Below are positions 21,828 to 60,593 of a stretch of 64,000 nt of DNA, in pieces. The stretch comes from Marsupella aquatica (taxonomy: Eukaryota > Plantae > Marchantiophyta). Positions within the stretch are counted from its first letter, which is position 1, and the number at the start of each line of letters is the position of its first letter. The notes below the pieces were generated by a model. The model searched no databases. It was not told where the DNA came from and saw only the letters and a program-made list of their open reading frames with translations. Made by a program: the position numbers and the translations under genes. The stretch covers positions 12,292,359-12,356,358 of the forward strand of contig OZ316893.1 of NCBI GenBank assembly GCA_973895155.1, in the 5' to 3' direction.

Positions 21828-22330
21828 CTAGTTCAATACCTCTGCATTGCACAAAAAATGTTGTTAAGTAAAAAAAAAGTCGTGTTGCCATAGATGTTAT
21901 GTCTAAGATGTAGTCAAGTCGACATATGTCATGGCGCCAAAGATGTCATTATGTGAAAGATGTTGTTATGTAAAAAGATGTTGTGGCGCCAAAGATATTG
22001 TTATGTCTATTAGTAAGATGTGGTCAAGTAAAAAGATGTTCTTATGTCTAAGATGTGGTCAAGTAAAAGATGTCATTATGTGAAAAATGTTGTTATTAAG
22101 TAAAAAGATATTGCTATGTCAAGATCTCATCAAGTAAGAAGATGTCATACGTAAAATGATGTTGTTAAGTATAAAATGGTCGATAAGTAAAGGGATGTTG
22201 GTAGTGAAATATGTTGTGAAGTAAAAGAGGTTAAATACAAAATATAGTTAGTAAACTCTGTTAGGTCAAGTAAAGAAGCCGTTAACTAATCAATGCACAT
22301 TGTTGTGTAAATGGTGATGTTGTTGCCCTA
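21828..22330 (-). mobile_element. Non-autonomous Helitron-like remnant with an AAAAGATGTTGT minisatellite body
   Basis: The minus strand ends TGTGCAATGCAGAGGTATTGAACTAG-T, a degenerate hairpin followed by CTAG-T. The same end and repeat body occur at 45560-46700. Confidence 0.6.
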
Positions 22331-23738
22331 AACAAGTCTTCAACAAAATATGATCTGATATTTATGCCAATTATACCCCTTGGGGCAACAGCACGGCTTG
22401 GCCCACTTTTCAAAAGCCCTTTTGTCCTATCCCTTGCTTATGTAACCCCATTGGTAACCCTAGTTTTGGTTATTTTAAAGTTGGTTTGCTTAAAGTTGTC
22501 GTGATTGCTTGCTAGCCTTTGACCGCCCCAATACCGAGACCCCTTGGGGCACTAGCATGGCTCAACCCACTTTTCAGTAGCACAATTTTCCTACCCTTTG
22601 CATGAAACCCCTTTGATAACCCCATCCAAGTTTACTTGGCTCCTTACTCTCCAACACCATGCCCCCTTCGGATGGTAGTGTGGTTTGTATAGCTTTTCAA
22701 CATATGTTTGAGAGGATGTGGTCCCCTCATATATGCAACTGGGGACCTGCCACCCTGGATCACCTTAGTTTGGTCCCAATATCTTGGCCTTCTAGACAGG
22801 GTGGCAAGAGATTGATAACGGCAAGGCCGAGGGCTCAGGAGGGAGTTGGAACCAACACAAGCGGTTGAGTTAGGTCCGGGGATGGCTGACCTCACACTCT
22901 TCAAGTTCAGAGTGCCTGGACCTGAGACCCAGGGGTGGTCCCTTCTGGCCGGTGGCATAGGCTCTCCAAGAGCATGGCACAAGGGAGGGAGGTGGTGGGC
23001 AAGCGAGAGAGGGCAAGCCCAGGCAGAGGCAAGGGTCAGGTGAGTCAGGAGTCGGGGAAGGGCAAGACAAGTGTGAGATGTTGCGAGTTAGAGTCGAGAA
23101 TCAAGAGTCGGGCAAGTCCGTGTCAGGGCGAGGGCCTACCCAAGATTTAATCCAGGCATCCCGAGTCAGCCAAGATTTGGTGCAGGCACAGCGAGGGTGA
23201 GACGGCCAGGGGCGACCGCGAGTCAAGCATCGATGTCCAACGTCGGGCAAAGGCCTCGGCAAGGGCAAGTAACAGCCCCAAGCACTCAAGAGCAACGGCT
23301 GCATAGTCGGGCCATTAAGTATACGGTTAAGGACGGCTACTGTCCCTTTATAGGATATTATAGTCAACTATATATGGTCGGCCCGCGTATGCGGGGAGAC
23401 CGTATAGGGGAGACTTAATATCCCGTTAAGGTAGTTTGGTGGTGTTAAGTTCTTTCAGTCCAATTCAGTGATTGACACGTTTGCACTTAACGGGTTGATA
23501 ATATCTCATGATTTTATACCATATATTTATATGGTATGTTCATTATCACATACGGTCATGTTCTCAATAATGGCGCCCTCAACAGAACCGATCCAAATTG
23601 GAACACGTTCTCAATGGCGCGCCAATAGTGAAGACTGTAAACAATGGTGAATCTCCCGCAGTGGAGAGTGTAAACTTTATTTACATGATCAAAAAAATTA
23701 CAATGGGATTGTCTCATCAAGTAGATCTATCTATTGAC

Positions 23739-23867
23739 AATTCCCGTGTCTGTATAAAAAGAATGCATGTAAAGAAGGGACGTCTGATCAATTCCCGTGT
23801 CTGTATAAAAAGAATGCATGTAAAGAAGGGATGTCTGATCAATTCTAGTGTCTGTAAGAAAGAATGC
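23739..23867. repeat. 51-bp tandem repeat, about 2.5 copies
   Basis: Unit CAATTCCCGTGTCTGTATAAAAAGAATGCATGTAAAGAAGGGA(C/T)GTCTGAT. Confidence 0.9.
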
Positions 23868-24039
23868 TGTGAAATGTCTATGAATGATGAATGTGTGTAA
23901 TGTGAATGTCTAATTCTACCGGATAAATGCCTAGCCGCCTTACTAATATGCAATGCAAGTGCCTCTCGGGCTACAATCTACAACTAATTACAGTGCTCCT
24001 ATCAAGTCTGCCTCCGCTGCTCCATGTCGAGTACTTACA

Positions 24040-25445
24040 CTAGCCACCAAATTTACCAATGTTAATGGAGATAGTGCAATTGTTGAGTGATTGCACTTGG
24101 TTGAAAAGTGCTTGGACTGGATTCACAATCACAGCCCCACCACCTTGATGCAAGTTCTGGAAATGATCATCCCAATCATACTTCTCGACCCAATCATCAG
24201 AAAACCAGTCAACCTGACTAGTATCAACATTCAAAATAGGACTTCCATCACTTCGAGCAGCGTCTTCAACAGCAACCACCTCAATCTCCATGGGCATCAA
24301 TCCACCAGTCGCCTCTTCAACTTGTGTCGGGCCTTCAGAACTGTGAATTACAGTTGCAGGAGCCACTGCTTCAACACCCGGAGGAGTGACATCTTCTGCT
24401 CCATCAAGTCCTGGTCGAGAGTACATGCTGGTCACAGTCGACTCATCTGTTACAAGCATCAACCGGACAACATCAGAAATTGTCTCAATTGCAAAGTTGT
24501 AAAGCAATAATTGCCGAATGGGACTAAGAACAAATTTACCTTCGTCTGCCTTTGGCCTTTTGTTTGATCATCCTCAAGGCCTTGGATGACCTTCTTCTTG
24601 AACCGCTCCGTTTCTTCCTGACATTTGCCTTCAAAATCTGAGGACCCGCTGGTACACTTATGGGCAGCCCTTACCTTGGAGTCTATGCTGCGATCATACC
24701 GAGCATAAGCACCCTGGCTTTTATGCCCAGTTATCAGCATGCCAATAGGTGCCGGCACTCCTTCAGCAGCCATACGTGTAACACAAGTGGTTCTACCGGA
24801 CTTATTTGATACGCCTTCCGTCAATAGACCACATTCTGTGTGAATCTCTTTCACAATGCCACTTAATTTTTTGACTGACACGCGTTGTGTTGAATACCAA
24901 GCATGCGTACGTGGACTGTCGATGCACTGATAGAACAGAAACAAACCAGCAACAGGTAAATGAGATATTAGACTCTCCATCGTGGAAACCATGTCAGGAT
25001 CGTAGCTCGTTACAGCTGGGCGGAAATGCTCGTCTTGATAGCGTTCAAGACCGACTTTGTAATTCTTCGAGAGTCTCTCATCGTATCTCACGTAATGCCC
25101 ATTGTCATCAGTACCCAAAAGAAAGTCGCTCTTAGCAAACAGATGTAGCTCAGACCTCCCCGAATGGCAAACCGAAATAACAGAATGTATACTGCCCGGC
25201 GTTGAAGACCTCGGGGATGAACAATGGCTGTGCATGAGTGAGTCAATATCGTGGCCTCATCAGCTAACGAAATTACAGATGCCTTCTTCCGAGGCATATT
25301 CGCACCATTCCTCCTTGATCGTTCCATAGCTAAAACGCAAGCAACCCCTACCTGCTTGAATAGAGGACTCTCGCCTCTCTCGCGCATGTGGAACACAGGT
25401 TCATCTTGTCCGCTTTACCTTACTCTGACTTCTTGTCTGATTCAA
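24040..25445 (-). pseudogene. DUF3504/Crypton-type tyrosine recombinase, disrupted
   Basis: ORFs 25396-25088, 25235-24459 and 24507-24040 stitch into RFAIRGG-[1-nt indel near 25155]-SELH...ERLSKNY...WYS...VSNKSGRTT...ITGHKSQGAYARYD. This gives R, K, (H>K)xxR, H, Y in tyrosine-recombinase order. A GT-AG intron at 24539-24447 follows, then an acidic tail ending NNCTISINI. Confidence 0.8.
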
Positions 25446-25625
25446 AGGACTCTTGTATGCGGACCTTGCATTTTCCACTAATTGTTGTATGTGGACCTTG
25501 CATTTTCCATTGGCTGTCTACTCCATTTTCCACTGACTACTCCTGTACCCGCAACCTTGAATTTTCCACTGACTGCAACTACATTCAGTTTGCCATTATA
25601 TGCTCAAGTCTATCTTGATCAAGAT

Positions 25626-27815
25626 ATGGCACAACGCAGCACAATGACCACTACGCCATCAATGTCAATGGCAATCCCAACCTTCAGCATTGGGATGTTG
25701 GCCTTTGTGAACAACGAGATAAGTGTCCTTTCGCATGGACTTGACGCTACCAATCACAGTGATCTAGTCTCTAGCATGTTTGATAAACTCACACTCGATG
25801 AGAATCAGACGCAACTCCTGATTGATTTGCTGAATGCAAACCTGGATAGTATCAATGTAGAGTCATCCCTCAGTCAACAGGTTGTCGTTCAGGTTGAAGG
25901 TCAAACTCCATTTGATTTCTTGCCGAGGACAAGATGTTTTAGTAGACGATTGCTGCTGGTGGCACCAGTCCATCTGCGGCTGTTGATAAGTGGGCCAGGA
26001 ATGACCTTGACAAATATCATAGGTTTAAGGGTTGGGAAGTCACCATTCCCTTTGAAGATCTGTTTACCTGGCATGTGTAGTAGCTTACTTACAAAGTTTT
26101 TTGGGCAAGTTACTAAGAAAGATGGTAGTCTGAGCCAAACATTGATGGAGCTTTATCGTGCATTTCATAGGATGGTTCATCTTAAGCAGGAGTCCAGAGT
26201 TTAGCTGTCTGGTCAAGATGAGCCAACTTTCTGCATGAGGAGCGGCCTGCTCTCTAAACGGGTAGGTATTTCCTATGTCTTAGCCATGGAAAGATCTTGT
26301 TGGGCTGGTGCAAACCTGCCCCAAAAGAAAGCTGTTGTGATTTTGTTGTCACAGCTCTACAAGCAGACGATATTGGATCACAATTGTACAAGTCGTGCAC
26401 ATCCAAAAGGCCTGCAAAGAAGGTGTGTGTTTTACTTGCTTTGCAGATTTGCGATACGTGGTGGATAGAGGTTGTACAAGCTTGAGCAAACTGAGTTTCC
26501 ATTTGGTACTGATGAAGTTGGTGAGTATATTCGCTACAATGAACGACTGTTGAAGAACTATTGTGTGAGTCTTGATAGGTACCAAGAAGAACATTTCTGA
26601 CCTGCAACGACAGAATATGATTTGGATATGGTTGAGACGTTGAAGGAGTTGATCAGTTATCTTGCTGTGTCTAGTACGTTTCTATTTTGTCAGTCCATTG
26701 ACAACTTGTAGACTAATGTTTGGTATTCAACTCTTTGTGTGTCTGCCAAGAAGTTAACTGGATGCCTGAAGGAGATTCACAAGGAATGTACATGGTCTAG
26801 ATGTAGAAGCTGTCTCTAACAAGTCAGGAAGAACGACGTGTGTTGGCCTCCAAAGGTGTCCCGCCTACAGTGGGAATGCGGATCACAGGACACAAGAGTC
26901 AAGGTGCCTATAGCCGATATGACGCCATTGTTGAAGCATAGGTTTATGCTACTCAGAGATCTTTAGGTGAGAGGCCAAGAGCCCTTATAATTCTAATGTT
27001 CTTGAAGGACAGGTCTCTTCAAAAATAATGTGATTGAAGGTTGAGAGGAGCATGCGATTGTGAAGAAGGCTCGTTCAGAGACCCTATTCAGATAAATTTT
27101 TTCCATTTTAAACCTTGTTTTTCAGAAGTAAAGGTTACTAACACAGTTTTTTTTGTTTCATAGGTAGCTCAGCTAGCCACAACAGCAAAGTGTTTGAAGT
27201 GACTAGTGTGGGGTCAAGTGTAGCTGCTCCTGCAGCTGATACAATGGTCAGGATTCATAGAGTGGACATGATGATTTTGGGCCCTGAGAACAACCCAAAA
27301 GTAGTGTCATCAACTACGATGGGGACTGCAATTGAGGAGGGTGGACAATTTGCAGATGATGACTTTGAGGGAGTGGAGTGGATGCACGACTATGATTGGG
27401 ACAAGTACATGTCTCCATGGGACCGTGAAGGAGGCCATAGCACTCTAGGGGATAACTAAGCGTATATTTTGGGGTACCACGTGCAATCCTAGCCTAATTT
27501 AAATAGACTTGTTTTATATTTAAGAGAATATTTTATATTTTCAATATTAATAACCTCTTATAATATATAAAAGGTAAATATTAGAGAATATTCTATAAAC
27601 ATGAGTTTATAATACTTTCTTTTGCCTCCTACACTTTTTAAAAATTTAGTTAATTCCTATAAAGAATACCTATTTTGGATCGCACGTGGTTCCTAAAAAT
27701 TTTAATAGTAAACCCCTCGAGCTGCAACACCATTATGAACACAATCAATGCTCTCATTGGGAAAATATCTGGAATGACCAATTGCACAATCAATTTTAAC
27801 ATCAAGTCACTCTAG
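25626..27815 (+). pseudogene. DUF3504/Crypton-type tyrosine recombinase with multiple stops and frameshifts
   Basis: Manual translation: LLTKFFGQVTKKDGS...TLMELYRAFHR; HPKGLQRRCVFYLLCRFAIRGG*; YIRYNERLLKNY; VSNKSGRTTCV; ITGHKSQGAYSRYD; EWMHDYDWDKY; MTNCTINFNIKSL*. It is collinear with copy A. Confidence 0.8.
27447..27717. mobile_element. AT-rich MITE inserted in the last exon of recombinase copy B
   Basis: Imperfect TIRs AGGGGATAACTA...ACCACGTGCAATCC and GGATCGCACGTGGT...TAGTAAACCCCT. Homology to copy A resumes right after it. Confidence 0.7.
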
Positions 27816-30800
27816 ACCAACTGAGTACCACGAACAAAGTTGAAACAAGCCACTACAAGAGGCCTTTGTGGCATATAGATTGTAGGTAGTATAAGCAACA
27901 AGCTAGGATAGATTCTTGTAGCGATTGTAAATGGCAAGCTCAATTTTGGCTGCCAATATTATAATTGTAGAGTGTTTGGTAAGATAGCGCCACTTTTCAG
28001 AGACTATGTGTCTCAAATAATTGACATTTGCTAATAAGTCCATCTTAATATACCCAATGACCTTTATTGGTGTTTCAAAAGGCTCCTTTCAATGTATCTT
28101 TTCTTTTCATATAATAAAGTTGGTACTCTCCACCGTAGGAGTTTTGCATTTGATAACAATTATGTTTATATTAAACTCCAGTTAGGCTGCTGTAATTTGA
28201 ATTGCCACGCCTAGGCCAAGTTGAGCTGGTTAGCTTTCGAATACAGCTCACCCTATGTCACATTTGGTCTATACAGTTGTACACATAAAACACTCACGGT
28301 GAGTGTTTTATGAGATATAATATCTACAAAAAAACCTTACATGTCATCTCATGAATGGCCAAAGAGAGTAATAGACAAACACTTTTCCTTAACGGGGGAC
28401 TTTCGTCGGGGCATAGGTGAGGTCACAAGTCAAGTCTGGCTTGGGCGGTTCGGGCACGGGCTCAAATTGGGCATCGGGCACCACTCGGCCCAGGTGTGGC
28501 GCGATTTGGGTGTGAGTAGGGAGGCAAGTTGGGCATCATCGGCCACACGGATGGAAGGGTTGCGGCGGCTTTTTTCCTTCAATGTTTCCACATTTTACCT
28601 ATTTTTATTGTTCAGTTTTTAAATACTTTGCAATTAAAGATATTCTAATTAAAAACATTATCACAGTTTCTTTGTATTTACTATTCTGTATACTGATGAC
28701 AAGTTCACCAAGGTAATAAGAAAACTATATAGGCATATTTGTAAATATAAATAAAAAGAGTAGCAGAATTGTAAATTGAAACATCTTTATTGGCAATGTA
28801 CTTTAAAAGCTTGCACCCAAAATAGACCTGTAAGTTCAAATAATTACCACGGACAAAACAAGGCGCAACATTTTATTATAGTTTTTGATAGACTGTAGCC
28901 TGTGCCTACCCATTTAAAAGTCACACTTAAGTGTTGTTGTATTTGCATTTGACAAAACATTGAGGCCCGTCTAGATCAAAAAATACCATGGGGGCATTTT
29001 GTGAAGCATGCAGATCTATCTGAGCCTTGTTTATACATGTCAACCTGAAGTTACTAACATACCTCTTTGTAACATTAAAATTGCCAGTCAAACAAGTCTG
29101 CACACAGGTTAAAGTCCACATTATTTTGTACTCTGTTTGGCACTTTTGGTAAAACATTTGTATTTTTCCTTGTTAGAGTAGTTTTTCATCATCTGTCAAA
29201 CAAGTTGTCAATAGAGTAACTCAAAGCTCAGAATTTTATAGACCGTAACTCCATAGTTACAAGCTACAGATGACAAGTTAATTACAAACTATCAAATTAG
29301 TAGTCCGTATCCTTTTGACATAAAAATTGATAATATGTCAACCTCATTAGTCACTCTAGATTTGTACTTTTTTAAATTAGGTAATCTTGTAAGAAAGTTA
29401 AGATCATTCCATTATGATCAAGTGGTTGATTTCAATTCATTTCCATCATTCAAAGGTTGCCATGTCAGGATTTTTTCCCTGATTATTTCTCATTAAGAAA
29501 TTGCAGTATTTCATATGGTGTCTATATGGTGCAGCTGTGTGACTCTCTGCGATGTATGAGCTGTCAGGAATGCGGGCGAGCTGGGGTCAAATTGAAATCT
29601 GAGAGCTCCCCTAGACACATTGGTCCTTTGACAAAGAGATAGACACCATAACTAAGTATTGTGTGGGGTGTTCTGCTCTGCAGTTGCATTAGTGAGCTGC
29701 CCACTTGAAGAGGGCGGAAATGAGGCGAAGATACTGAGCTTTGCCGACAATATCTAAAGGAAGCCAGCAGGATAAGGATTGATTCAACAAAACTCCCATC
29801 TCACATTCCCTCGAGTAAAGAAACACATCAGCAAATGCAGGACATCTTTATCAAGAGAGTACTGAAGTCAAAGAGATGAGATCGTAAGAGCTGAAGTTGA
29901 TGCTCAACTTCAACATGCCAGATTGTGTTTACAAACATACAAAGAAAATTACAACCAGGAATTTGTGTTGCATTGAGTTGCCTAGGTCTGTACAGGAGAA
30001 TCATAGCAGTGCTAGGTGATAGAGACAACCATGTGATGAGGCAACCATTAACCACACTGGCAGTCAGTTGTTGAGGTCCTCAGCTAATTTTGCACAGTTC
30101 ACATGCAACACTTCAAATCAGTGTATTACTCAACACTTAATGTTTTGCTAAAGACGATCGTGTTCCTTAATAGGGCCACTGTCCAGGACAAAACCTGTAT
30201 ACACCAGGTTTCACCCTTTTTACTACATTTTTCTTGAAATTATGGAGCAAACTCTCACGCTAGGGGAGAGAAACAAGTTTCACCATGTTTAGTATATTTT
30301 TCTTCGAAATTAAGGGGGATAGTTTTTGGCCATGAAGTACATGGTTAAGGAAAGGAGCTGTCCCTTTATGGGACGTAAAGATGACTGTAGTCGGGACTGT
30401 AGTATATAGTATTTTGAAACCTATTGGGTCCATTGTGGCGCAATGCCTCGTCGTCAGGGGCGAGCATTCCTCGGAAGCGGAATCGCATTTTGAGAGAATG
30501 ATTATTTTGTTGACTGAGGTTCATCGTCCATTCGTCCGGGAATAATGCAGAGAAACAAACAAAAAAGCAAGCCACGCTGCAGCATGGTACTCGTCTGTAG
30601 CTGTCACTCGCTGACGGGAAAACGCCAACACTGACGGCGATGGCCATGGCCAAATAACTGCTTCGAGCTTCGGGATTCGCGTCGTCAGGGCGGGAAGTAC
30701 GGCTGGCGGGAGAGAGGCAGTGCGGGCGACGGGGCATGACAGTGACAGAGCATCATTCTGCAGTTCTGCACGTCAATTGGTAAACAGGGGAGAGCCCGAT

Positions 30801-45399: not shown

Positions 45400-46700
45400 A
45401 ATCTTCTCTTTACCATCCATGTATAGAAATTAAGTGCTCTTCCCTCTACTATATATCCATGCTAGCTCTTAACTCCTTCTACCATCCATGCATTACCATG
45501 CTCCTCCCTCTACCATCCATGCTATACAACCTCATCTATTACGCATTTACATTTTTTGACAAACAACATCTTTTAGTAAATTACATGTTTTGCGTAATGA
45601 TATCTTTTACTTAACCACATCTTTTGAGTAACCACATATTTCACTTGACAGCATCTTTTGCGCAATGTTGTCTTTTACTTAACAACATCTTTTACTTAAT
45701 GACATATTTTCCTAACAACATCTTTTACTTAACAACATTTATTGCGCAACAGCATCTTTTACTTAATGACATCTTTTGAGAAACCACATATTTACTTAAC
45801 AACGTCTTTTACTTAACTACATCTTTTACTTAACATGTCTTTTGCACAATGACATATTTATTAGCGACATCTTTTGGACAATCACATATTTTACTTAACA
45901 ACACCTTTTGCATAACATCTTTTACTTAAGGACATCTTTAATGCAACGACATGTTTACACAACAACATCTTCTGTGAATCTGACCTCAAGATCTTTTCTC
46001 ATCTTGACATGTTTTCCTCACCTCGAGATCTTTTCTCACCTTACCATCTTTATCTCACCATAACATCATTCCCTCACCCTCAACATCTTTTCTCTCCTCA
46101 ACATTTTTTCCTCATCTTGACATATTTTTCTCAACTCACCATCTTTTCTCTCCTTGACATCTTTTTCTCACCTTGGAATATAATTCTCTCATTCACATCT
46201 TTTTTCACCACAACATCTTTTCCTCACCACGCCATCTTTTGTGCAACTTTTGTATTAACAACAATCATCTTTTCTCTGAAAGACATCTTGGGCGCCATTA
46301 CATTTTGGACAACATGACATCTCTTTTCTTAAGGACATCTTGGGTGCCAAGGCATCTTTTTTCTTAACGATATCTTGGTTGACACTCTATTTCTTTTCTC
46401 AATGACACCTTGGACGACATGATATTTTTTTCCTTAAGGACATCTTGGGCAACATGACATCTTTTATTTCACGATATCTTGGGTTTTCTTAACAATATCT
46501 TGGGCATGATCTTGGGCAACACCACATCTTTTTTTTCCTTAACGGCACCTTGGGCGACACAACATCTTTTTTTCTTAACAATATTTTAGGTCACACAACA
46601 TCTTTTTCGTAACGACATCTTTTTTTCTTAGCAACATCTTGGGCAACACATCTTTTTTCTTCACGCCATCTTTTTGTGCAACGCATGCGTATTGAGCTAG
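45400..46700 (+). mobile_element. Non-autonomous Helitron-like element made mostly of minisatellite
   Basis: Dozens of ACATCTTTT-core units. The 3' end TGTGCAACGCATGCGTATTGAGCTAG-T is a hairpin followed by CTAG-T. The 5' boundary is approximate. Confidence 0.65.
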
Positions 46701-47480: not shown

Positions 47481-47639
47481 CTCCAACGTTTAGGTTACTT
47501 AAAGAATATTTGTTTGCTCATTTATCTATGTACAATGCTTTGTCCGGCCCCCTTCATACCTTATTCAGACTGTTTTGCCCACTCCCTTGTTTTTGTCATT
47601 GCTCCCATCCTTTGACACCAGTGTGATGGGGACCTTTGG

Positions 47640-49030
47640 ATACCTTATTGGCCCTAGAGCCCTTGACGGAGAAGATGGTTCTTTTGCCGCTCGGTAGGCT
47701 GCCCTGCCGCCTTCTGGCGGTGGCATGGGTATTTCCTCAGCTGTTTCTACTGCCCCTTGCGCATGCCTTGGGAGTTGGGCGCCCTTGCTTCTCGTTTCAT
47801 TATGGATCTCCAGCCCATCCTCTTTGACCATGTCATGGGGGTTGAGGAGGGAGTCCTCCCTTTCCAGGTTTGCCTTCAATTTGCCACACCCGTTCTCTCT
47901 TGCCCGAGGTTGTACAAGCTGTTGTTCCTCATTTTATGGAGGTGGTTCTTGACAGTCCGGATTGTGTCCAGCAGGTGATTTTCGATCGCATGCACCATCA
48001 CACCCTTTCCAGTATGCTCTTGGATGCACCTTCCGACTTGGTTCGAGCTCGCCTCCTCTCTTGTGCAGGAACGGGTTTTGGAGCTTGGTTGTCTGCTAGT
48101 CCTTTGTGGGCCCCCTGTCGTATGAGCTCCTTTCTCTTTACCACTTCACTACCACTTAGGTTGAGACCAACTCACGTGTGTTTGTGGGGCATCGTTGGAT
48201 TTGTTGGGAGTTCGTATTCTCAGGTGTGGCCATGGGAGTGAGAGGACTGCCACCCATGATGACATTTGGGACGTGGTGGCTGCCATTGCCCGGGACTCTG
48301 GTTACCATGTTGCCATGGAGCAACGACAAGTTCGTCCCCCTCGGGATGGTCTTCCTGACCAGCGGCGTGCGGATCTGGTCTTTTCTAGGGCTGGGGTTCG
48401 TGCTCTTGGGGATGTGGTTGTTGCTGATCCTACTGGGGGGAGGCATGTCGCGGTTGCCGCCCATGTGCCTGGCCATGCTGCTGCCAAGGCAGCTTGGCTC
48501 AAGGAGGAGGCCTATGCAGTTCGCTACCCGGGAGATCTTTTCTACCCGTTTGCCCTTGAAGTTTTTGATGCTCTCCACCCTACCTTCGACCAGTTCTTAC
48601 GGGCCTGTGCAGTTTTTTGTATTGAGCAGAGGCCTTTCCCCCCTGTTTCCGTCCTCACTGCCTTTTTCGGCAATGGGTGTCTATGGCTCGTCAGCCTGCC
48701 CAGGCTTTCACCCTCCTTTGTAGGGCTGAGGCAGTTCCCTAGGCCCAGTTGGTTTTAGGGCTTCCCGGCAGGTTCCGCTTCATGACCCTCCTATGCGGTT
48801 TACTATGGAGCTCTACCAATTTTCAGTTCTTCACTTAGCCTTCACGGCTCCTTTGCAGCTTCCTTTTTTGGCCCTTGCTTCCTCGTTGGCATTTGGTTGG
48901 GGTCCCCTTGGCTTGTTTTTCTTGGGGCCCTTTCCACTCTTTTACTTTCCTTCATTGGGTTGCTTTGCCTTTGGGATCATGTCTCCAGGTTAGGCATTTT
49001 TTGCCCTTGGGCACTCTGATATATATACAA
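47640..49030 (+). mobile_element. 5'-truncated, decayed non-LTR retrotransposon with restriction-like endonuclease (CRE-clade-like)
   Basis: Frameshifted pieces: AALPPSGGGMGI (end of RT/thumb), RARLLSCAGTGFGAWL, a CCHC remnant, THDDIWD (RHD motif), RRADL...GDVVVADP (PD..D), KAAWLKEEAY and FYPFALEVF. It ends in a short (AT)n run at about 49019-49027. Confidence 0.75.
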
Positions 49031-49559: not shown

Positions 49560-51092
<1,533 letters not shown>

Positions 51093-55142: not shown

Positions 55143-56279
55143 ATGCTTGGGAGGTGACGTGTGTTCGTGACGGGATTTCATTACGGTTTTTCCAGCGTTG
55201 AGTGTCGGTGGATTTCCCGGAGTTCCGTCGCATGGAACTTGGAGTTTATGGGCTCAACGGATAGATCGGGGCAAGAGCTTTCTAACGGTGTGAAGAAATC
55301 GTTGAACGGAGCTCGTGGTGCAGAGAGATCTAAGTTTTCGTCGTTCTGGATTTTGTGAAGAAAGTTGGCAATCGACTCGGAGGGAGAAGCGTCAAGTGTT
55401 TTGACTCAACGGAGAGATTGAGGCAAGACGATTGTTTTGAGTCCGGGATTGGCTCTTTGATGCAAAGAGGAAGGCTAAGCAAAATCAATTACCTTGTTGG
55501 ATTGGTGACGGCACCAAGTGCAATTGATCAACATTCGTTGTTGACAAGGTACCATTTTTTCTCTTTGAAAAACTGATTCGAAATTGGCTATGGCAATTGA
55601 GAGAAATCTGTCATCTTTACCAATTTTTTTCTCCCTCGTTCTTTCCTCGTTTTGGGTGCTTCTTATATCGATCTTCACCGCCTCGAAGTCTAGTTTCCAA
55701 ATCTGAAATCAGATCTTGATTTCGTCAAAACTCGAGTGAGATATCTTGCGTTTGGTGTCGAGGGGTACATTCTGTCGTGTGTATTTTCTGCGCGCGCGAC
55801 CAGATTTCGACGACGAAGGGTGGTAGGGGGTTTTGGGGGTTCGAGGACACGTGTCAGCCCCTCGATTGTTCTTCCAAAATTCCCACAGGGCCTGTACAAG
55901 GGTCATAAAATATTCCAAAAAACCAGAGAGCTATTTTTTGACCGTCCGACAAAGATTTCATCCGTCGAACGGTAACTTTTTTGGTTATTTTTTGGCGAGG
56001 TCGTAGCCATTGAAGTTGGCAACGCGGCGCACCAATCACATCGTAATTCCGACAACGGGTTGTACTTGGTATTTCGGTTATTCCCTGAGGTGGTCAAAAC
56101 GGGGGAGTTTCCCAAGGTTTTACCCACCTCGACCGAAATTTGAATAACTTTTCCGTCAAATTTCGATTTTGATTTCGGTTTACAGTATTGGACTCCTAGC
56201 TTTGTGGGCTACGCGGCGGTGTTGAGTTTCGAGTTTTTTGAGAAGTTGTGAAAAACAACAATTTTTGTGATTTTCTCAT

Positions 56280-57320
56280 ATGAGTGATTCGGAGAAATTT
56301 TTCGAAGACGTGGAACTTGAAGCACGAGGATCACCGCGGCGGTTTCAGGGGCAGAGAGAGGAGCAGGAGGAAGAGCACGTGACACCGATACCATCACCGG
56401 TGCGGCGTGTGGTGGAGGAAGCAGTACTACTACCGGAGCTCACGGTAGTGCCAAAGAAGAAGATGGGGACTTTCAAGCTTGGGGGACCCAAGTATGAAGT
56501 GACAAAGTATGATGGGCGCTCTGACTACTTGCTATGGGAGAAGCAGGTGAAGGGAGTGCTCTATGCGTCAGGGATGGGCCAACTGCTGAGCCCTCGTGAA
56601 GACGATGTTGATGAGAAACAATGGGACCGCATGCAGGAGCAGGGAGTGTGGTGTGTTACACTCTATCTCATGCCTCCCATCATCAAGCAGTTGGGTGCAC
56701 ATAAGGATTGCATGTCCTTGTTTGCGGAATTGCAGAGCAAGTATCACCGCAAGGAGTTGTCGAACCGGCTCTACACTTCCTACAAACTCATGAGTTTCAC
56801 GATGAAGGAATCTGGCACAAAGTTGCAAGACCATGTGGATGCTTTCAACGACATGGTCGTTGACTTGGAAAACCTTGGGGAGACTTTGAATGATGAGACG
56901 AAGGCTCTGCAGCTTCTTAGTTCATTGCCTCCATCTTACCAGTCCCTATCACGAGTGTTGTTGCATCGTGATAGGGATACCATTTCATATAATGACGTGG
57001 TAAGTTCTCTGCTTAGTGATGATCTTCAGCAGAAGATGCACATCACATCACAGCCTTCATCATCTGGTGCTGCCCTCAATGTTAACCGTGGGAGGGGTAT
57101 GCAGCGACCAACTGGGGACCGTAGAACCCAGTTTAGATCTAAATCCAGATCTAAGTCCAAGGGTAAATCCCCTCAGAGGAGGCAGGTGACATGTTGGAAG
57201 TGCAACCAAGTTGGACACTTCAAGCGAGACTGTAAGGGAAAGGCAGCGGAAACTTCATCGGCAAATGTGGCTAGGGCTGATGGAGAAGCTGATTTACTCA
57301 ATGACGAGTATGTTTTATGA
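56280..57320 (+). CDS. gag: Copia Gag (UBN2-like domain plus CCHC zinc knuckle)
   Basis: YEVTKYDGRSDYLLWE, LLSSLPPSY and CWKCNQVGHFKRDC. Ends in TGA at 57318-57320. Confidence 0.93.
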   Translation: MSDSEKFFEDVELEARGSPRRFQGQREEQEEEHVTPIPSPVRRVVEEAVLLPELTVVPKKKMGTFKLGGPKYEVTKYDGRSDYLLWEKQVKGVLYASGMGQLLSPREDDVDEKQWDRMQEQGVWCVTLYLMPPIIKQLGAHKDCMSLFAELQSKYHRKELSNRLYTSYKLMSFTMKESGTKLQDHVDAFNDMVVDLENLGETLNDETKALQLLSSLPPSYQSLSRVLLHRDRDTISYNDVVSSLLSDDLQQKMHITSQPSSSGAALNVNRGRGMQRPTGDRRTQFRSKSRSKSKGKSPQRRQVTCWKCNQVGHFKRDCKGKAAETSSANVARADGEADLLNDEYVL

Positions 57321-60300
57321 AGTCGGGGGTATGCCCTGTGCACGTCATCTAGGAGAGCAGATGATGTGTGGATTCTTGATTGTGCTTGCTCTTTTCATAT
57401 TTGTTACATTCGTGAGTTTTTCAGTTCTTACTCTATTTCAAACGGTTCAGTTCTGATGGGAAATGATCACTCCTGTCAAATTGAGGGAATTGGGTCTGTG
57501 AAGATTCAAATGTTTGATGGCGCTGTGCGCACAGTGTCCGGAGTCAGGTATGTACCTGGCATGCGTAAGAATCTGATTTCACTCGGTGTGTTGGATTCAA
57601 ATGGTCATCAATGGAGCGTTATTGATGGTGAACTTCAAGTCAGGTCGGGAGAGACAGTGATTTTGAAGGGGAGTAGACAAAAGAATTTGTATGTGTTACA
57701 GGGCAATACTGTATGTGGAGAGGCCAATGTAACCAAGTCTCACGAGGAGATGACTCAACTGTGGCATTCACGGCTAGGCCACATGAGTGAGAAGGGTTTG
57801 GCTATCTTACGGAAGAATGGACTCATTTCTGATTTGCAATCTTGTAAATTAGAGTTTTGTGAGCATTGCATTCTTGGAAAGCAGCATCGTCGTGCTTTTG
57901 GTGTTGGAACTCATCGTTCCAAAGCGGTTCTTGAGTACATACATAGTGACGTGTGGGGTCCATCCCCGACTCCCTCACACTCTGGAAAGTTGTACTATGT
58001 ATCATTTATTGATGATTACTCAAGATTTGTGTGGATTTATTTCATGACGCATAAGTCTGATGTCTTGTCCATTTTTAAGAAGTGGAAGGCCCAGATGGAG
58101 AATCAGACTGGAAACACGATCAAGTGTTTGGATACAAGGGTGAAGAGTCTGAGGTCAGACAACGGCGGGGAGTACACTTCAATGGAATTTGAAGAGTACT
58201 GTTCAGAACAGGGGATAACTCGCCATCTCACCATAGTTTATACTCCGCAGCAGAATGGTGTCGCTGAGAGGCTCAATCGAACACTGTTGGAGCGGTCACG
58301 GAGTATGTTGAGCCAATCAGGTTTACCACAAGAATTTTGGGCAGAAGCTATCAATACCGCAGCTTATTTGGTAAATCTTTCTCCTTCTAGTGCTATCAAT
58401 TTCAAAATGCCGTTTGAGATGCGCTATAAGCGGCAAGCAGACTATCATGGCTTGGTAGTTTTTGGAAGTGATGCATATGCTCTCACACCGAAGCAGAATA
58501 GGACCAAGTTGGATCCTACCTCCAAGAAATGTGTTTTTCTTGGGTACCAGAGTGGTGTGAAAGCCTATAGGCTATGGGATCCTATTGCCTGTAAGCTCGT
58601 TGTCAGTAGGGATGTTTCCTTCAATGAATCCAGATTATTGAAGGAGGGGGAGAATACTCAGGTCTCTCGTACTGACAAAGGAAAATCTCCTATCCCGGAT
58701 CTCGTTGAGGGGGAGATTGGTTATGAGGTGCATGACCGGAGAGAAGGAGTTGCTCCAATTATGGAGCTGGTTCCTGTGCCAGAGGAACCAGAGGAGTTTG
58801 TTGATGCTGGTGAGCAGCAAGTGGATGTTGTTGAGCTTCAAATTGTACCAGCACACGCAGATCAACCGAAGTCATCGGCTAGAAGAACATCTGGTCGCAC
58901 TGTACGTGCTCCACCAAGGTATGGACAGTGGGTTGATTCATCTCAACTGCAAGAAAATGATTTTGCAACTGATGATGAGGGTGATGCGTTAATTTTGGAA
59001 GAAGGGGAACCTTCTTCATTTCATGAGGCAAGTGCTTCAAAGGAGAAGCAGAATTGGACTGCAGCAATGCAAACGGAGATGCAGTCACTAAAGGACAACA
59101 AAACTTGGGAGCTTGTTAAGCTGCCTAAGGGTCAGCAAGTGGTGGACAGCAAGTGGATTTACAAGCTGAAGGATAATTCCATAGGAGGTGGATCGAAGGT
59201 CTACAAGGCTAGGTTGGTAGCAAAGGGATTCACACAAGAGAAAGGTGTGGATTACAATGAGGTCTTCTCACCAGTTGCTAAGTACTCTACAATACGACTA
59301 TTGTGTGTACTTGTTGTAATGTTTGGTCTGCTGCTAGATCAGATGGATGTTGTCACAGCTTTCCTCTATGGCACATTGGAAGAGGTGATCTTCATGAGAC
59401 AACCGCCAGGTTTTGTGAAGAGAGGACAGGAGGAATTGGTTTGCAGATTGCTGAAATCCTTGTATGGGTTGAAGCAGTCACCAAGACAGTGGAACAAGCG
59501 GTTTGACGATTGGATTCGGTCACAAGGTTTTCACAGAAGTGTATTTGACCCTTGTGTGTATTTGAAATCAGTAAAGAATATTGTATTTGGGTTCATTGTT
59601 TTAGTACTTTATGTGGATGATATGCTAATTGCAGCCAAGGATAGGTCTGAGATTGTTAAGCTCAAGGCACTGCTTAGTGCAGAGTTTAAGATGAAGGACT
59701 TAGGGCCAACTAAGAGGATTTTGGGTATGGAGATCACTAGGGACTTGGAGGCTGGCAAGCTATGGTTGACGCAGAGCAGTTATGCGAGGAAGGTAATTGC
59801 AAGGTTCAACATGGGGAATAGCAAGCCAGTAAGTACCCCGTTGGCTCCACACTTCAAGTTATCATCAGCATTCTGTCCTACGGATGACATAGAGAAGGGG
59901 TTGATGTCAAAGGTTCCGTATGACAAGGCAGTGGGGAGTCTCATGTATTTGATGACTTGCACTAGACCTGATCTTGCCATGGCTATGGGCAAGGTAAGCA
60001 GGTACATGTCAAATCCAGGGAAGGTACACTGGGAAGCAGTGAAGTGGATTATCAGGTACTTGAAGGGTACCGTGGATCATGGTCTTTTATTTGATGCGAA
60101 TGCAAAGAATGCTAAATCATTGATTGGCTATGTTGATTCTGACTATGGACAAGATTTGGACCGAAGGAGATCAACAACAGGATATGTGTTCATACTTGGC
60201 GGTGGATGCATAAGTTGGAGGTCTACTTTGCAGAAGTGTATTGCTCAGTCTACTACAGAAGCGGAGTATGTTGCAGCTGCGGAAGCAGCAAAGGAAGCGA

Positions 60301-60593
60301 TTTGGTTGGATAGACTTATCACTGAAATGGGATTGCCACAGGGGAATGTGAAGCTCCATTGTGATAGTCAAAGTGCGCTCCACCTTGCTATGAACCAGGT
60401 GATGGACAGCAGAGTGAAGCACATTGATGTCAGGTACCATTTTATCAGGCAGGCTGTGTCTGATAATTTGTTTGAGCTAGTCAAGATTGATGGTAAACTC
60501 AACCCGGCTGACGCATTTACCAAAGTGATTCCTTTGGAGAGTTTCTCTAGACACCGTGACGTATTGCAGGTTTTGCAATTGCATCACAAGTAG
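57321..60593 (+). CDS. pol: Copia Pol (protease, GAG-pre-integrase, integrase, RT, RNase H), in frame with gag
   Basis: WILDCACSFH, WHSRLGH...CEHC, HSDVWGP, SDNGGEY, QQNGVAER, YKARLVAKGF, LYGLKQSPRQW, YVDDML, YVDSDY and KHIDVRYHFIR. The frame is open from the codon directly after the gag stop. Confidence 0.95.
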   Translation, partial: SRGYALCTSSRRADDVWILDCACSFHICYIREFFSSYSISNGSVLMGNDHSCQIEGIGSVKIQMFDGAVRTVSGVRYVPGMRKNLISLGVLDSNGHQWSVIDGELQVRSGETVILKGSRQKNLYVLQGNTVCGEANVTKSHEEMTQLWHSRLGHMSEKGLAILRKNGLISDLQSCKLEFCEHCILGKQHRRAFGVGTHRSKAVLEYIHSDVWGPSPTPSHSGKLYYVSFIDDYSRFVWIYFMTHKSDVLSIFKKWKAQMENQTGNTIKCLDTRVKSLRSDNGGEYTSMEFEEYCSEQGITRHLTIVYTPQQNGVAERLNRTLLERSRSMLSQSGLPQEFWAEAINTAAYLVNLSPSSAINFKMPFEMRYKRQADYHGLVVFGSDAYALTPKQNRTKLDPTSKKCVFLGYQSGVKAYRLWDPIACKLVVSRDVSFNESRLLKEGENTQVSRTDKGKSPIPDLVEGEIGYEVHDRREGVAPIMELVPVPEEPEEFVDAGEQQVDVVELQIVPAHADQPKSSARRTSGRTVRAPPRYGQWVDSSQLQENDFATDDEGDALILEEGEPSSFHEASASKEKQNWTAAMQTEMQSLKDNKTWELVKLPKGQQVVDSKWIYKLKDNSIGGGSKVYKARLVAKGFTQEKGVDYNEVFSPVAKYSTIRLLCVLVVMFGLLLDQMDVVTAFLYGTLEEVIFMRQPPGFVKRGQEELVCRLLKSLYGLKQSPRQWNKRFDDWIRSQGFHRSVFDPCVYLKSVKNIVFGFIVLVLYVDDMLIAAKDRSEIVKLKALLSAEFKMKDLGPTKRILGMEITRDLEAGKLWLTQSSYARKVIARFNMGNSKPVSTPLAPHFKLSSAFCPTDDIEKGLMSKVPYDKAVGSLMYLMTCTRPDLAMAMGKVSRYMSNPGKVHWEAVKWIIRYLKGTVDHGLLFDANAKNAKSLIGYVDSDYGQDLDRRRSTTGYVFILGGGCISWRSTLQKCIAQSTTEAEYVAAAEAAKEAIWLDRLITEMGLPQGNVKLHCDSQSALHLAMNQVMDSRVKHIDVRYHFIRQAVSDNLFELVKIDGKLNPADAFTKVIPLESFSRHRDVLQVLQLHHK

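Follow-up and report, generated by a model that had tools for sequence, protein, structure and literature searches.

A 64,000-nucleotide stretch of the genome of the liverwort Marsupella aquatica (contig OZ316893.1, positions 12,292,359 to 12,356,358; hereafter the window) contains two decayed tyrosine-recombinase genes, which six-frame translation places back to back, copy A on the minus strand and copy B on the plus strand. With a probability of roughly 85%, we interpret them as dead members of two subfamilies that separated long ago, within a family of tyrosine recombinases which occurs in seed-free land plants and is likely a DNA transposon of the Crypton type, the plant counterpart of CryptonA/DUF3504 in animals and mycorrhizal fungi. 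An earlier note on this DNA had proposed a once-active plant Crypton lineage with several subfamilies; the analysis supports this proposal, makes a relation to CryptonA likely and carries the lineage beyond one genome. The locus is genuine: Contigs with zero differences from runs of two studies, one of which may be the source sample, span the A/B junction (25286-27432, 25317-26060 and 25286-25907), and since it is bridged by exact contigs from two studies the junction is not an assembly artefact. The features of the locus, in positions of the window, are the following:

23310 to 24039, minus strand: copy A 3′ non-coding region, with a 51-bp tandem repeat (23738-23861), AATAAA at 23681 and candidate end motifs at 23431 and 23332
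24040 to 24446, minus strand: copy A exon 2, with an acidic low-complexity tail, a WxxxxDW motif and the terminal NCTISIN followed by a stop
24447 to 24539, minus strand: putative copy A intron (GT..AG, about 93 nt), directly after the basic motif KRPK, read from sequence only
24540 to 25456, minus strand: copy A exon 1 remnant, with the last part of the core-binding domain and a complete catalytic domain (R..K..K-x-x-R..GH..Y)
25457 to 25625: A/B junction, comprising the broken 5′ end of A and the 5′ region of B, with direct repeats of 14-25 nt; bridged by exact contigs (two studies)
25626 to 27092, plus strand: copy B exon 1, with an N-terminal extension, the core-binding domain with LTKFFGQVTKKDG and the catalytic domain
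27093 to 27164, plus strand: putative copy B intron after KKAR, at the matching place in A, with an intact acceptor (27164) and no intact GT donor; predicted from the letters alone
27165 to 27815, plus strand: copy B exon 2, with an acidic tail, WxxxYDW and the terminal NCTINFN, split by a miniature inverted-repeat transposable element (MITE)
about 27441 to 27720: the MITE, about 280 bp, with imperfect terminal inverted repeats of about 50 nt, inside the last exon of B and not part of the Crypton
27816 to 28397, plus strand: copy B 3′ non-coding region, with AATAAA at 28113 and a candidate end motif at 28387
30328 to 30373, minus strand: 46-nt segment 80% identical to 23310-23355, a repeat end which may or may not belong to the Crypton family

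Copy A (about 25456 to 24040) begins inside the core-binding domain: Its first exon is truncated at about 25456, carries two stops within the first 45 bases, shifts frame at about 25157, just past the first catalytic arginine, and probably again near 24570, while the catalytic domain is open. Copy B (about 25626 to 27815) is full length and carries five in-frame stops and four frame changes in exon 1 (near 25915, 26065, 26790 and 26843) as well as the MITE in its last exon. Exon 1 of A is 64% identical to a Calypogeia protein (P0004), which exon 1 of B matches over residues 1-435 (tblastn, E 1.4e-92), and exon 2 of A matches residues 492-551 of P0007, an unbroken relative (tblastn, E 5.9e-9). 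The motifs FAIRGG (25171 in A, 26448 in B), SNKSGRTT (24809, 26815), TGHKS followed by AY.RY (24731, 26885) and the terminal NCTI.(I/F)NI (24081, 27780), which the earlier note had listed, were recovered in both copies. The KFF..QV..KKDG block, claimed for both proteins, is present in B (26094) but absent from A, and SKN is intact in A but reads LKN in B. A late intron had likewise been proposed for both: Candidate donor (about 24539) and acceptor (about 24447) are good in A; in B the acceptor is intact and the GT donor is not.

Over 191 codons, 5 of which stem from two short mis-framed segments, A and B are 60% identical, with proportions of nonsynonymous (pN) and synonymous (pS) differences of 0.27 and 0.74; the resulting ratio of nonsynonymous to synonymous rates (dN/dS) of about 0.1 is rough, as dS is saturated. 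Given about 60% identity with saturated synonymous sites, A and B are separate, long-diverged subfamilies, which were first under purifying selection and decayed afterwards, in line with the claim of two well-diverged copies.

The assignment to tyrosine recombinases with an affinity to DUF3504/CryptonA, which the earlier note had reached from motifs, is carried by a profile comparison and a fold prediction. Between a profile of the plant family and one of QRICH1+DUF3504+Phage_integrase proteins, the alignment spans 346 columns, with probability 100, E 8.1e-52 and 23% identity; the combination of a QRICH1-type domain with a DUF3504-type recombinase that marks CryptonA is found by this match, and not by the Pfam scan of the window copies. 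The best close relative reaches DUF3504 with E 4e-5, under the Pfam cut-off, and in the next tier of hits, which consists of QRICH1+DUF3504(+Phage_integrase) proteins, 22 of 42 scanned pass it. The unbroken relative P0007 is predicted (mean predicted local distance difference test score, pLDDT, of 77; core mostly above 90) to adopt the core-binding plus catalytic fold of the tyrosine recombinase superfamily, as in Cre/Xer/Int: Its model, folded from an alignment that contained DUF3504-tier sequences, matches Cre (E 6.9e-9, template modelling (TM) score 0.69, about 350 columns) and the QRICH1-containing entry 9hjt (E 4e-5). A PDB sequence search returned a weak integrase match only (E 0.077), and matches among viral structures were generic integrases with 9-16% identity.

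Both copies keep the catalytic R (RGG), K (SKN/LKN), R, the GH histidine and Y, and have lysine in place of the histidine of H-x-x-R. At this position, the 58 pattern-scorable proteins among the 150 listed hits carry Lys in 35, Arg in 3 and His in 20 cases, the latter all from the DUF3504 tier. A lysine in place of the tetrad histidine is known from type IB topoisomerases. Because of this replacement we file the family as a CryptonA-related variant and not as a plain CryptonA member.

The lineage is wider than one genome and comprises liverworts, a moss, clubmosses and ferns. A search with the catalytic domain of A yielded 7 proteins from 673 candidates, including two from Calypogeia fissa and one from Adiantum, and a profile built from six of these 7, compared with 1.84 billion representative sequences, found 2,840 hits at E 1e-3, of which 81 remained at 1e-30. 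The closeness of the window copies to Calypogeia proteins makes a leafy liverwort host likely. Among the 150 listed hits, 30 were looked up and 20 assigned to species, namely 18 from seed-free plants and 2 from animals (Branchiostoma, Mytilus KIAA1958-like); neither a seed plant nor a fungus is among these 20, a sample that cannot show absence. The plant genera with relatives are Adiantum, Calypogeia, Riccia, Marchantia, Ceratodon, Selaginella and Diphasiastrum. The family alignment (302 pattern matches) and P0162 (67) were run on metagenome contigs, and viral contigs were scanned as well (53 matches); none of these matches was confirmed. In a tree of 52 rows and 455 columns, which has no outgroup, consists of rows picked by a plant-built profile and omits fragments and most short hits, a clade of 29 rows (96/97) unites both window copies with 16 of the 17 species-assigned plant proteins and 11 others. 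Within it, A and B fall into a subclade of 8 rows (100/100) with two Calypogeia proteins, one of which is nearer to B than A is (100/70). The plant proteins thus form a distinct lineage beside the DUF3504-tier proteins, and the tree gives no indication of its origin. The Selaginella protein P0128, a garbled gene model on a long branch, lies outside the plant clade, and we draw nothing from it; it contains two repeated recombinase segments of a more divergent type (K-D-I-R motif) and is possibly another plant recombinase lineage.

Members of the family occur in several dispersed places. Adiantum capillus-veneris has 8 loci on 7 chromosome-scale contigs of 143-178 Mb, of which three belong to one 90% cluster and three others are less than 0.07 changes per site apart; Calypogeia has 3 loci on 3 contigs. 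In the window, diverged contigs of about 85% identity cover both copies in 4 of 4 runs, with up to 8-9 contigs at one site, a depth which is not a copy number, and additional ones cover the 3′ non-coding region of A in all four. Three run on beyond the break of A, and others show a sense codon at the stop of B at 26598-26600 and an extra base at its frameshift near 25915. Several subfamilies with dispersed copies, as the earlier note had envisaged, are accordingly seen in the divergence of A from B, in the Adiantum loci and in these contigs.

This dispersal also bears on whether A and B could be pseudogenes of a host gene family, i.e. of already domesticated recombinases spread by gene duplication. 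The putative intron would fit such an origin, as would the conserved, catalytically dead relatives in Marchantia and lycophytes; yet the window copies are full of stops while keeping their catalytic residues, the dead host-like genes sit on separate long branches, and near-identical copies are spread over Adiantum chromosomes, which makes this origin very unlikely.

The absence of a linked reverse transcriptase (RT), ribonuclease H (RNase H) or DDE transposase, stated in the earlier note, was borne out for the window: Neither the 32 stop-free frames of the flanks (20.1-23.1 kb and 28.3-35.3 kb) nor six read-through frames covering 30.3-34.4 kb gave an RT, RNase H or transposase match, in a scan in which the Copia pol of the window, as a control, did score. 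This matters for the possibility that A and B are the recombinase genes of a DIRS/Ngaro-like retrotransposon whose RT part was lost at the locus. The 5′ sides of both copies, where RT/RNase H would sit, are cut short or crowded, and the flanks of the relatives are unseen; nevertheless, B still has an N-terminal extension of its own, matching the Calypogeia protein from residue 1 onward, the QRICH1+DUF3504 architecture runs along the whole protein, and none of the 49 relatives scanned has an RT domain, so that we regard a DIRS/Ngaro-like origin as most improbable. DIRS and Ngaro recombinases also gave no DUF3504 match according to Kojima and Jurka 2011 (PMC3212892). That A and B are halves of one composite element (a divergent pair with common ends 23327-28397) or a local inverted duplication, as the back-to-back layout, similar 3′ lengths and similar outward-pointing motifs at the far ends might suggest, is hardly credible in view of their saturated synonymous sites, the grouping of B with a Calypogeia protein before A, and three diverged contigs that match A and continue beyond its break into sequence other than B.

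Several observations weigh against reading A and B as Crypton copies. Among the window pieces, P0001 and P0003 have zero Pfam matches and P0002 matches Phage_integrase with E 0.011, all below the cut-offs, and a single one of 19 plant-tier proteins (Riccia P0051) passes the cut-off for DUF3504; the profile check proposed in the earlier note thus succeeds for the family, whose profile aligns with DUF3504 proteins, but not for the copies themselves. The literal tetrad R-H-R-Y is absent, K replacing its H in the two copies as well as in the plant clade. The diverged contigs might partly derive from other organisms in the runs, and the absence of RT, RNase H and transposase holds within this window. 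Furthermore, B has about 170 bp of 5′ flank before A begins, so that an upstream part may have been lost, and as termini, target sites and empty sites are undefined, it is from dispersal that we infer transposition.

With respect to the ends, the limits 23327 and 28397 given in the earlier note could not be confirmed as termini. The 46-nt match between 23310-23355 and 30328-30373 (score 47, reached in 0 of 300 shuffles) runs 17 nt past 23327, and the end of B shares with the A site at 23431, 100 nt inside the supposed end of A, a 10-nt word that is near chance. The distance from this word to AATAAA is similar in both (274 nt in B, 250 nt in A), and 1 of 300 shuffles scored as high as the A-B 3′ alignment around AATAAA; as a hint, A may end near 23430. 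The left end of B is expected within 25457 to 25625. No long terminal repeats (LTRs) were seen at the copies, whose ends are undefined, and mapping of read contigs revealed no terminus or empty site, loose ends being swamped by high-copy repeats. As to a third isolated terminus, which had also been proposed, the 46-nt repeat match is real, but the six read-through frames of 30.3-34.4 kb hold no recombinase coding remnant behind it, and the terminus is unproven.

By analogy with Cryptons, the two exons of an intact element would encode a single protein of about 550-650 residues, whose core-binding and catalytic domains would clamp both element ends. Within an active site Arg-Lys-Lys-Arg-His-Tyr, in which Lys would replace the His of most recombinases, the catalytic tyrosine would nick and rejoin the DNA through a 3′-phosphotyrosine, thereby freeing a circle. 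This circle would insert by recombination at a short target that matches it, leaving no target-site duplication; that the lysine variant is active, that the element is excised and which target it uses are all extrapolated in this way. The scheme corresponds to the Crypton model, in which site-specific recombination excises the element and a short matching target takes it up again (PMC3212892), and de novo insertions and clean excisions are described for CryptonF-1_cRei (PMC9977147). At the present locus, the 5′ part of A was likely the landing site of B or was deleted by it, whereupon both copies would have decayed and the MITE would have entered B. The MITE, which the earlier note does not mention, is very high-copy, with a summed contig depth of 7,000-57,000 as compared to 20-100 in unique flank, and has no clear target-site duplication.

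CryptonA of animals (PMC3212892) resembles the plant family in its single recombinase with a QRICH1-type N-terminal domain and a DUF3504/Phage_integrase catalytic domain, collinear over the 346 columns, and, going by the window copies with their undefined ends, in having no RT, no recognised C-terminal domain and no obvious terminal repeats. Two DUF3504-tier proteins likewise finish in the short NC motif. The plant family differs from animal CryptonA by its occurrence in land plants, its separate clade (96/97) at about 23% identity, Lys/Arg for the tetrad His in 38 of 58 scorable hits, a longer acidic tail, the putative late intron and scores mostly below the Pfam DUF3504 cut-off. Glomhoppers of Glomeromycota (PMC13465315) are likewise of non-animal DUF3504 type, mostly truncated, often with introns and with ends that are hard to define, whereas they are reported to keep His and to nest within animal CryptonA. 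A fungal donor of the plant family is neither shown nor excluded, no fungus being among the 20 species-assigned hits. CryptonF-1_cRei of Chlamydomonas is a green-lineage Crypton as well and a model for short-motif insertion and clean excision (PMC9977147), but it belongs to the CryptonF group with a GCR1_C domain (PMC3212892); no protein scanned, window copies and relatives included, has a GCR1_C Pfam match. A DUF3435 (Starship captain) match is absent from the plant-tier proteins, whose elements measure about 3 kb.

The earlier note's impression that such elements are poorly described in land plants agrees with the literature covered, in which we found no land-plant description of the family; most subscription papers, Repbase and Dfam were outside the scope. 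In the passages covered, PMC3212892 lists animals, fungi and stramenopiles as Crypton hosts, and PMC13465315 calls DUF3504 ‘widespread in Opisthokonta’ and reports no plant elements. Against novelty weighs PMC4438587, which lists Crypton among the superfamilies of all groups including land plants, with the Selaginella row apparently blank in that column; automatic repeat tables contain trace ‘Crypton’ labels in seed plants (66 bp; PMC13084152), and single members of the family already carry DUF3504 or Tyr-recombinase labels in UniRef. The descriptions of CryptonA-type elements come from animals and, from 2026 on, also from mycorrhizal fungi (PMC13465315), the algal CryptonF, the one Crypton of the green lineage with data, being unrelated, and the plant clade fills a kingdom-sized gap. 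It would explain some unclassified repeats in seed-free plant genomes and offers intact-looking, plant-native site-specific recombinases (e.g. from Adiantum) for assay.

The window copies themselves are dead, and the interest of the family rests on its range and on likely domestications. An intact reading frame combined with lost catalytic residues is seen in lycophyte and Marchantia relatives and not in the window copies. One clade (100/100) comprises Selaginella LOC9653486/LOC9657420, Diphasiastrum O6H91_21G046100 and two further proteins (P0046, P0040, P0055 and P0060), in which the recombinase core is preceded by a fused N-terminal domain of 200 residues. This fusion has lost the first Arg and the entire K-x-x-R/GH/Y lobe; between Selaginella and Diphasiastrum, identity is 46% over 736 columns. 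The fused domain finds a match in PDB 8p26 (‘U2 snRNP auxiliary factor-like protein’; E 8.7e-13), which we take to be Arabidopsis PAXX, and language-model features point, as a lead only, to XRCC4/XLF/PAXX (0.82-0.86). Marchantia Mp5g04240, named ‘DUF3504 domain-containing protein’ in UniRef, is highly conserved, forming a cluster at ≥90% with an M. paleacea protein (the two being P0019 and P0165), and lacks the K-x-x-R and His motifs. From their sequences, the lycophyte fusion gene and Mp5g04240 are likely two plant domestications. Like the domesticated animal DUF3504 genes (KCTD1, KIAA1958, ZMYM2-4, QRICH1 and WOC), they keep the DNA-binding core without the catalytic residues; in contrast to these, they branch inside the plant clade and would be independent domestications. 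The Marchantia gene is testable, since knockouts are routine there, and the fusion, if true, would parallel the ZMYM/QRICH1/KCTD1 story in animals and would place a transposon-derived part in a DNA-repair protein. A wider scenario, for which we would put the odds somewhat short of even, is that land plants inherited the Lys-for-His Crypton lineage from their last common ancestor, and that it was mobile recently in ferns, lost in seed plants and domesticated at least two times; in lycophytes, one such event would have joined PAXX to the DNA-binding core of a dead recombinase.

Elsewhere in the window, reading of the open reading frames (ORFs) suggests an intron-rich gene, which we take to be INO80-like, and presumable F-box and methionine aminopeptidase genes. 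The 510-aa ORF at 49560-51092, which we assume to resemble methionine aminopeptidase 2, has no introns in an otherwise intron-rich genome and is a possible retrocopy. An Rfam scan of 20-34 kb found no family. High-copy repeats at 21860-23100 consist of a degenerate tandem array with a 17-bp unit and a GC-rich repeat directly outside copy A; an inverted relative of the array lies at 45700-46700. A repeated segment covered by diverged contigs (29400-30330) is found just outside the shared 46-nt motif. Frames at 47565-48758, without a match in a Pfam scan, presumably resemble the C-terminal zinc-knuckle/endonuclease end of a non-LTR retrotransposon. The Copia pol identified by Pfam belongs to a Copia LTR retrotransposon at 56271-60593, whose gag (349 aa) and pol (1090 aa) are open with one stop codon between them, and which is possibly young.

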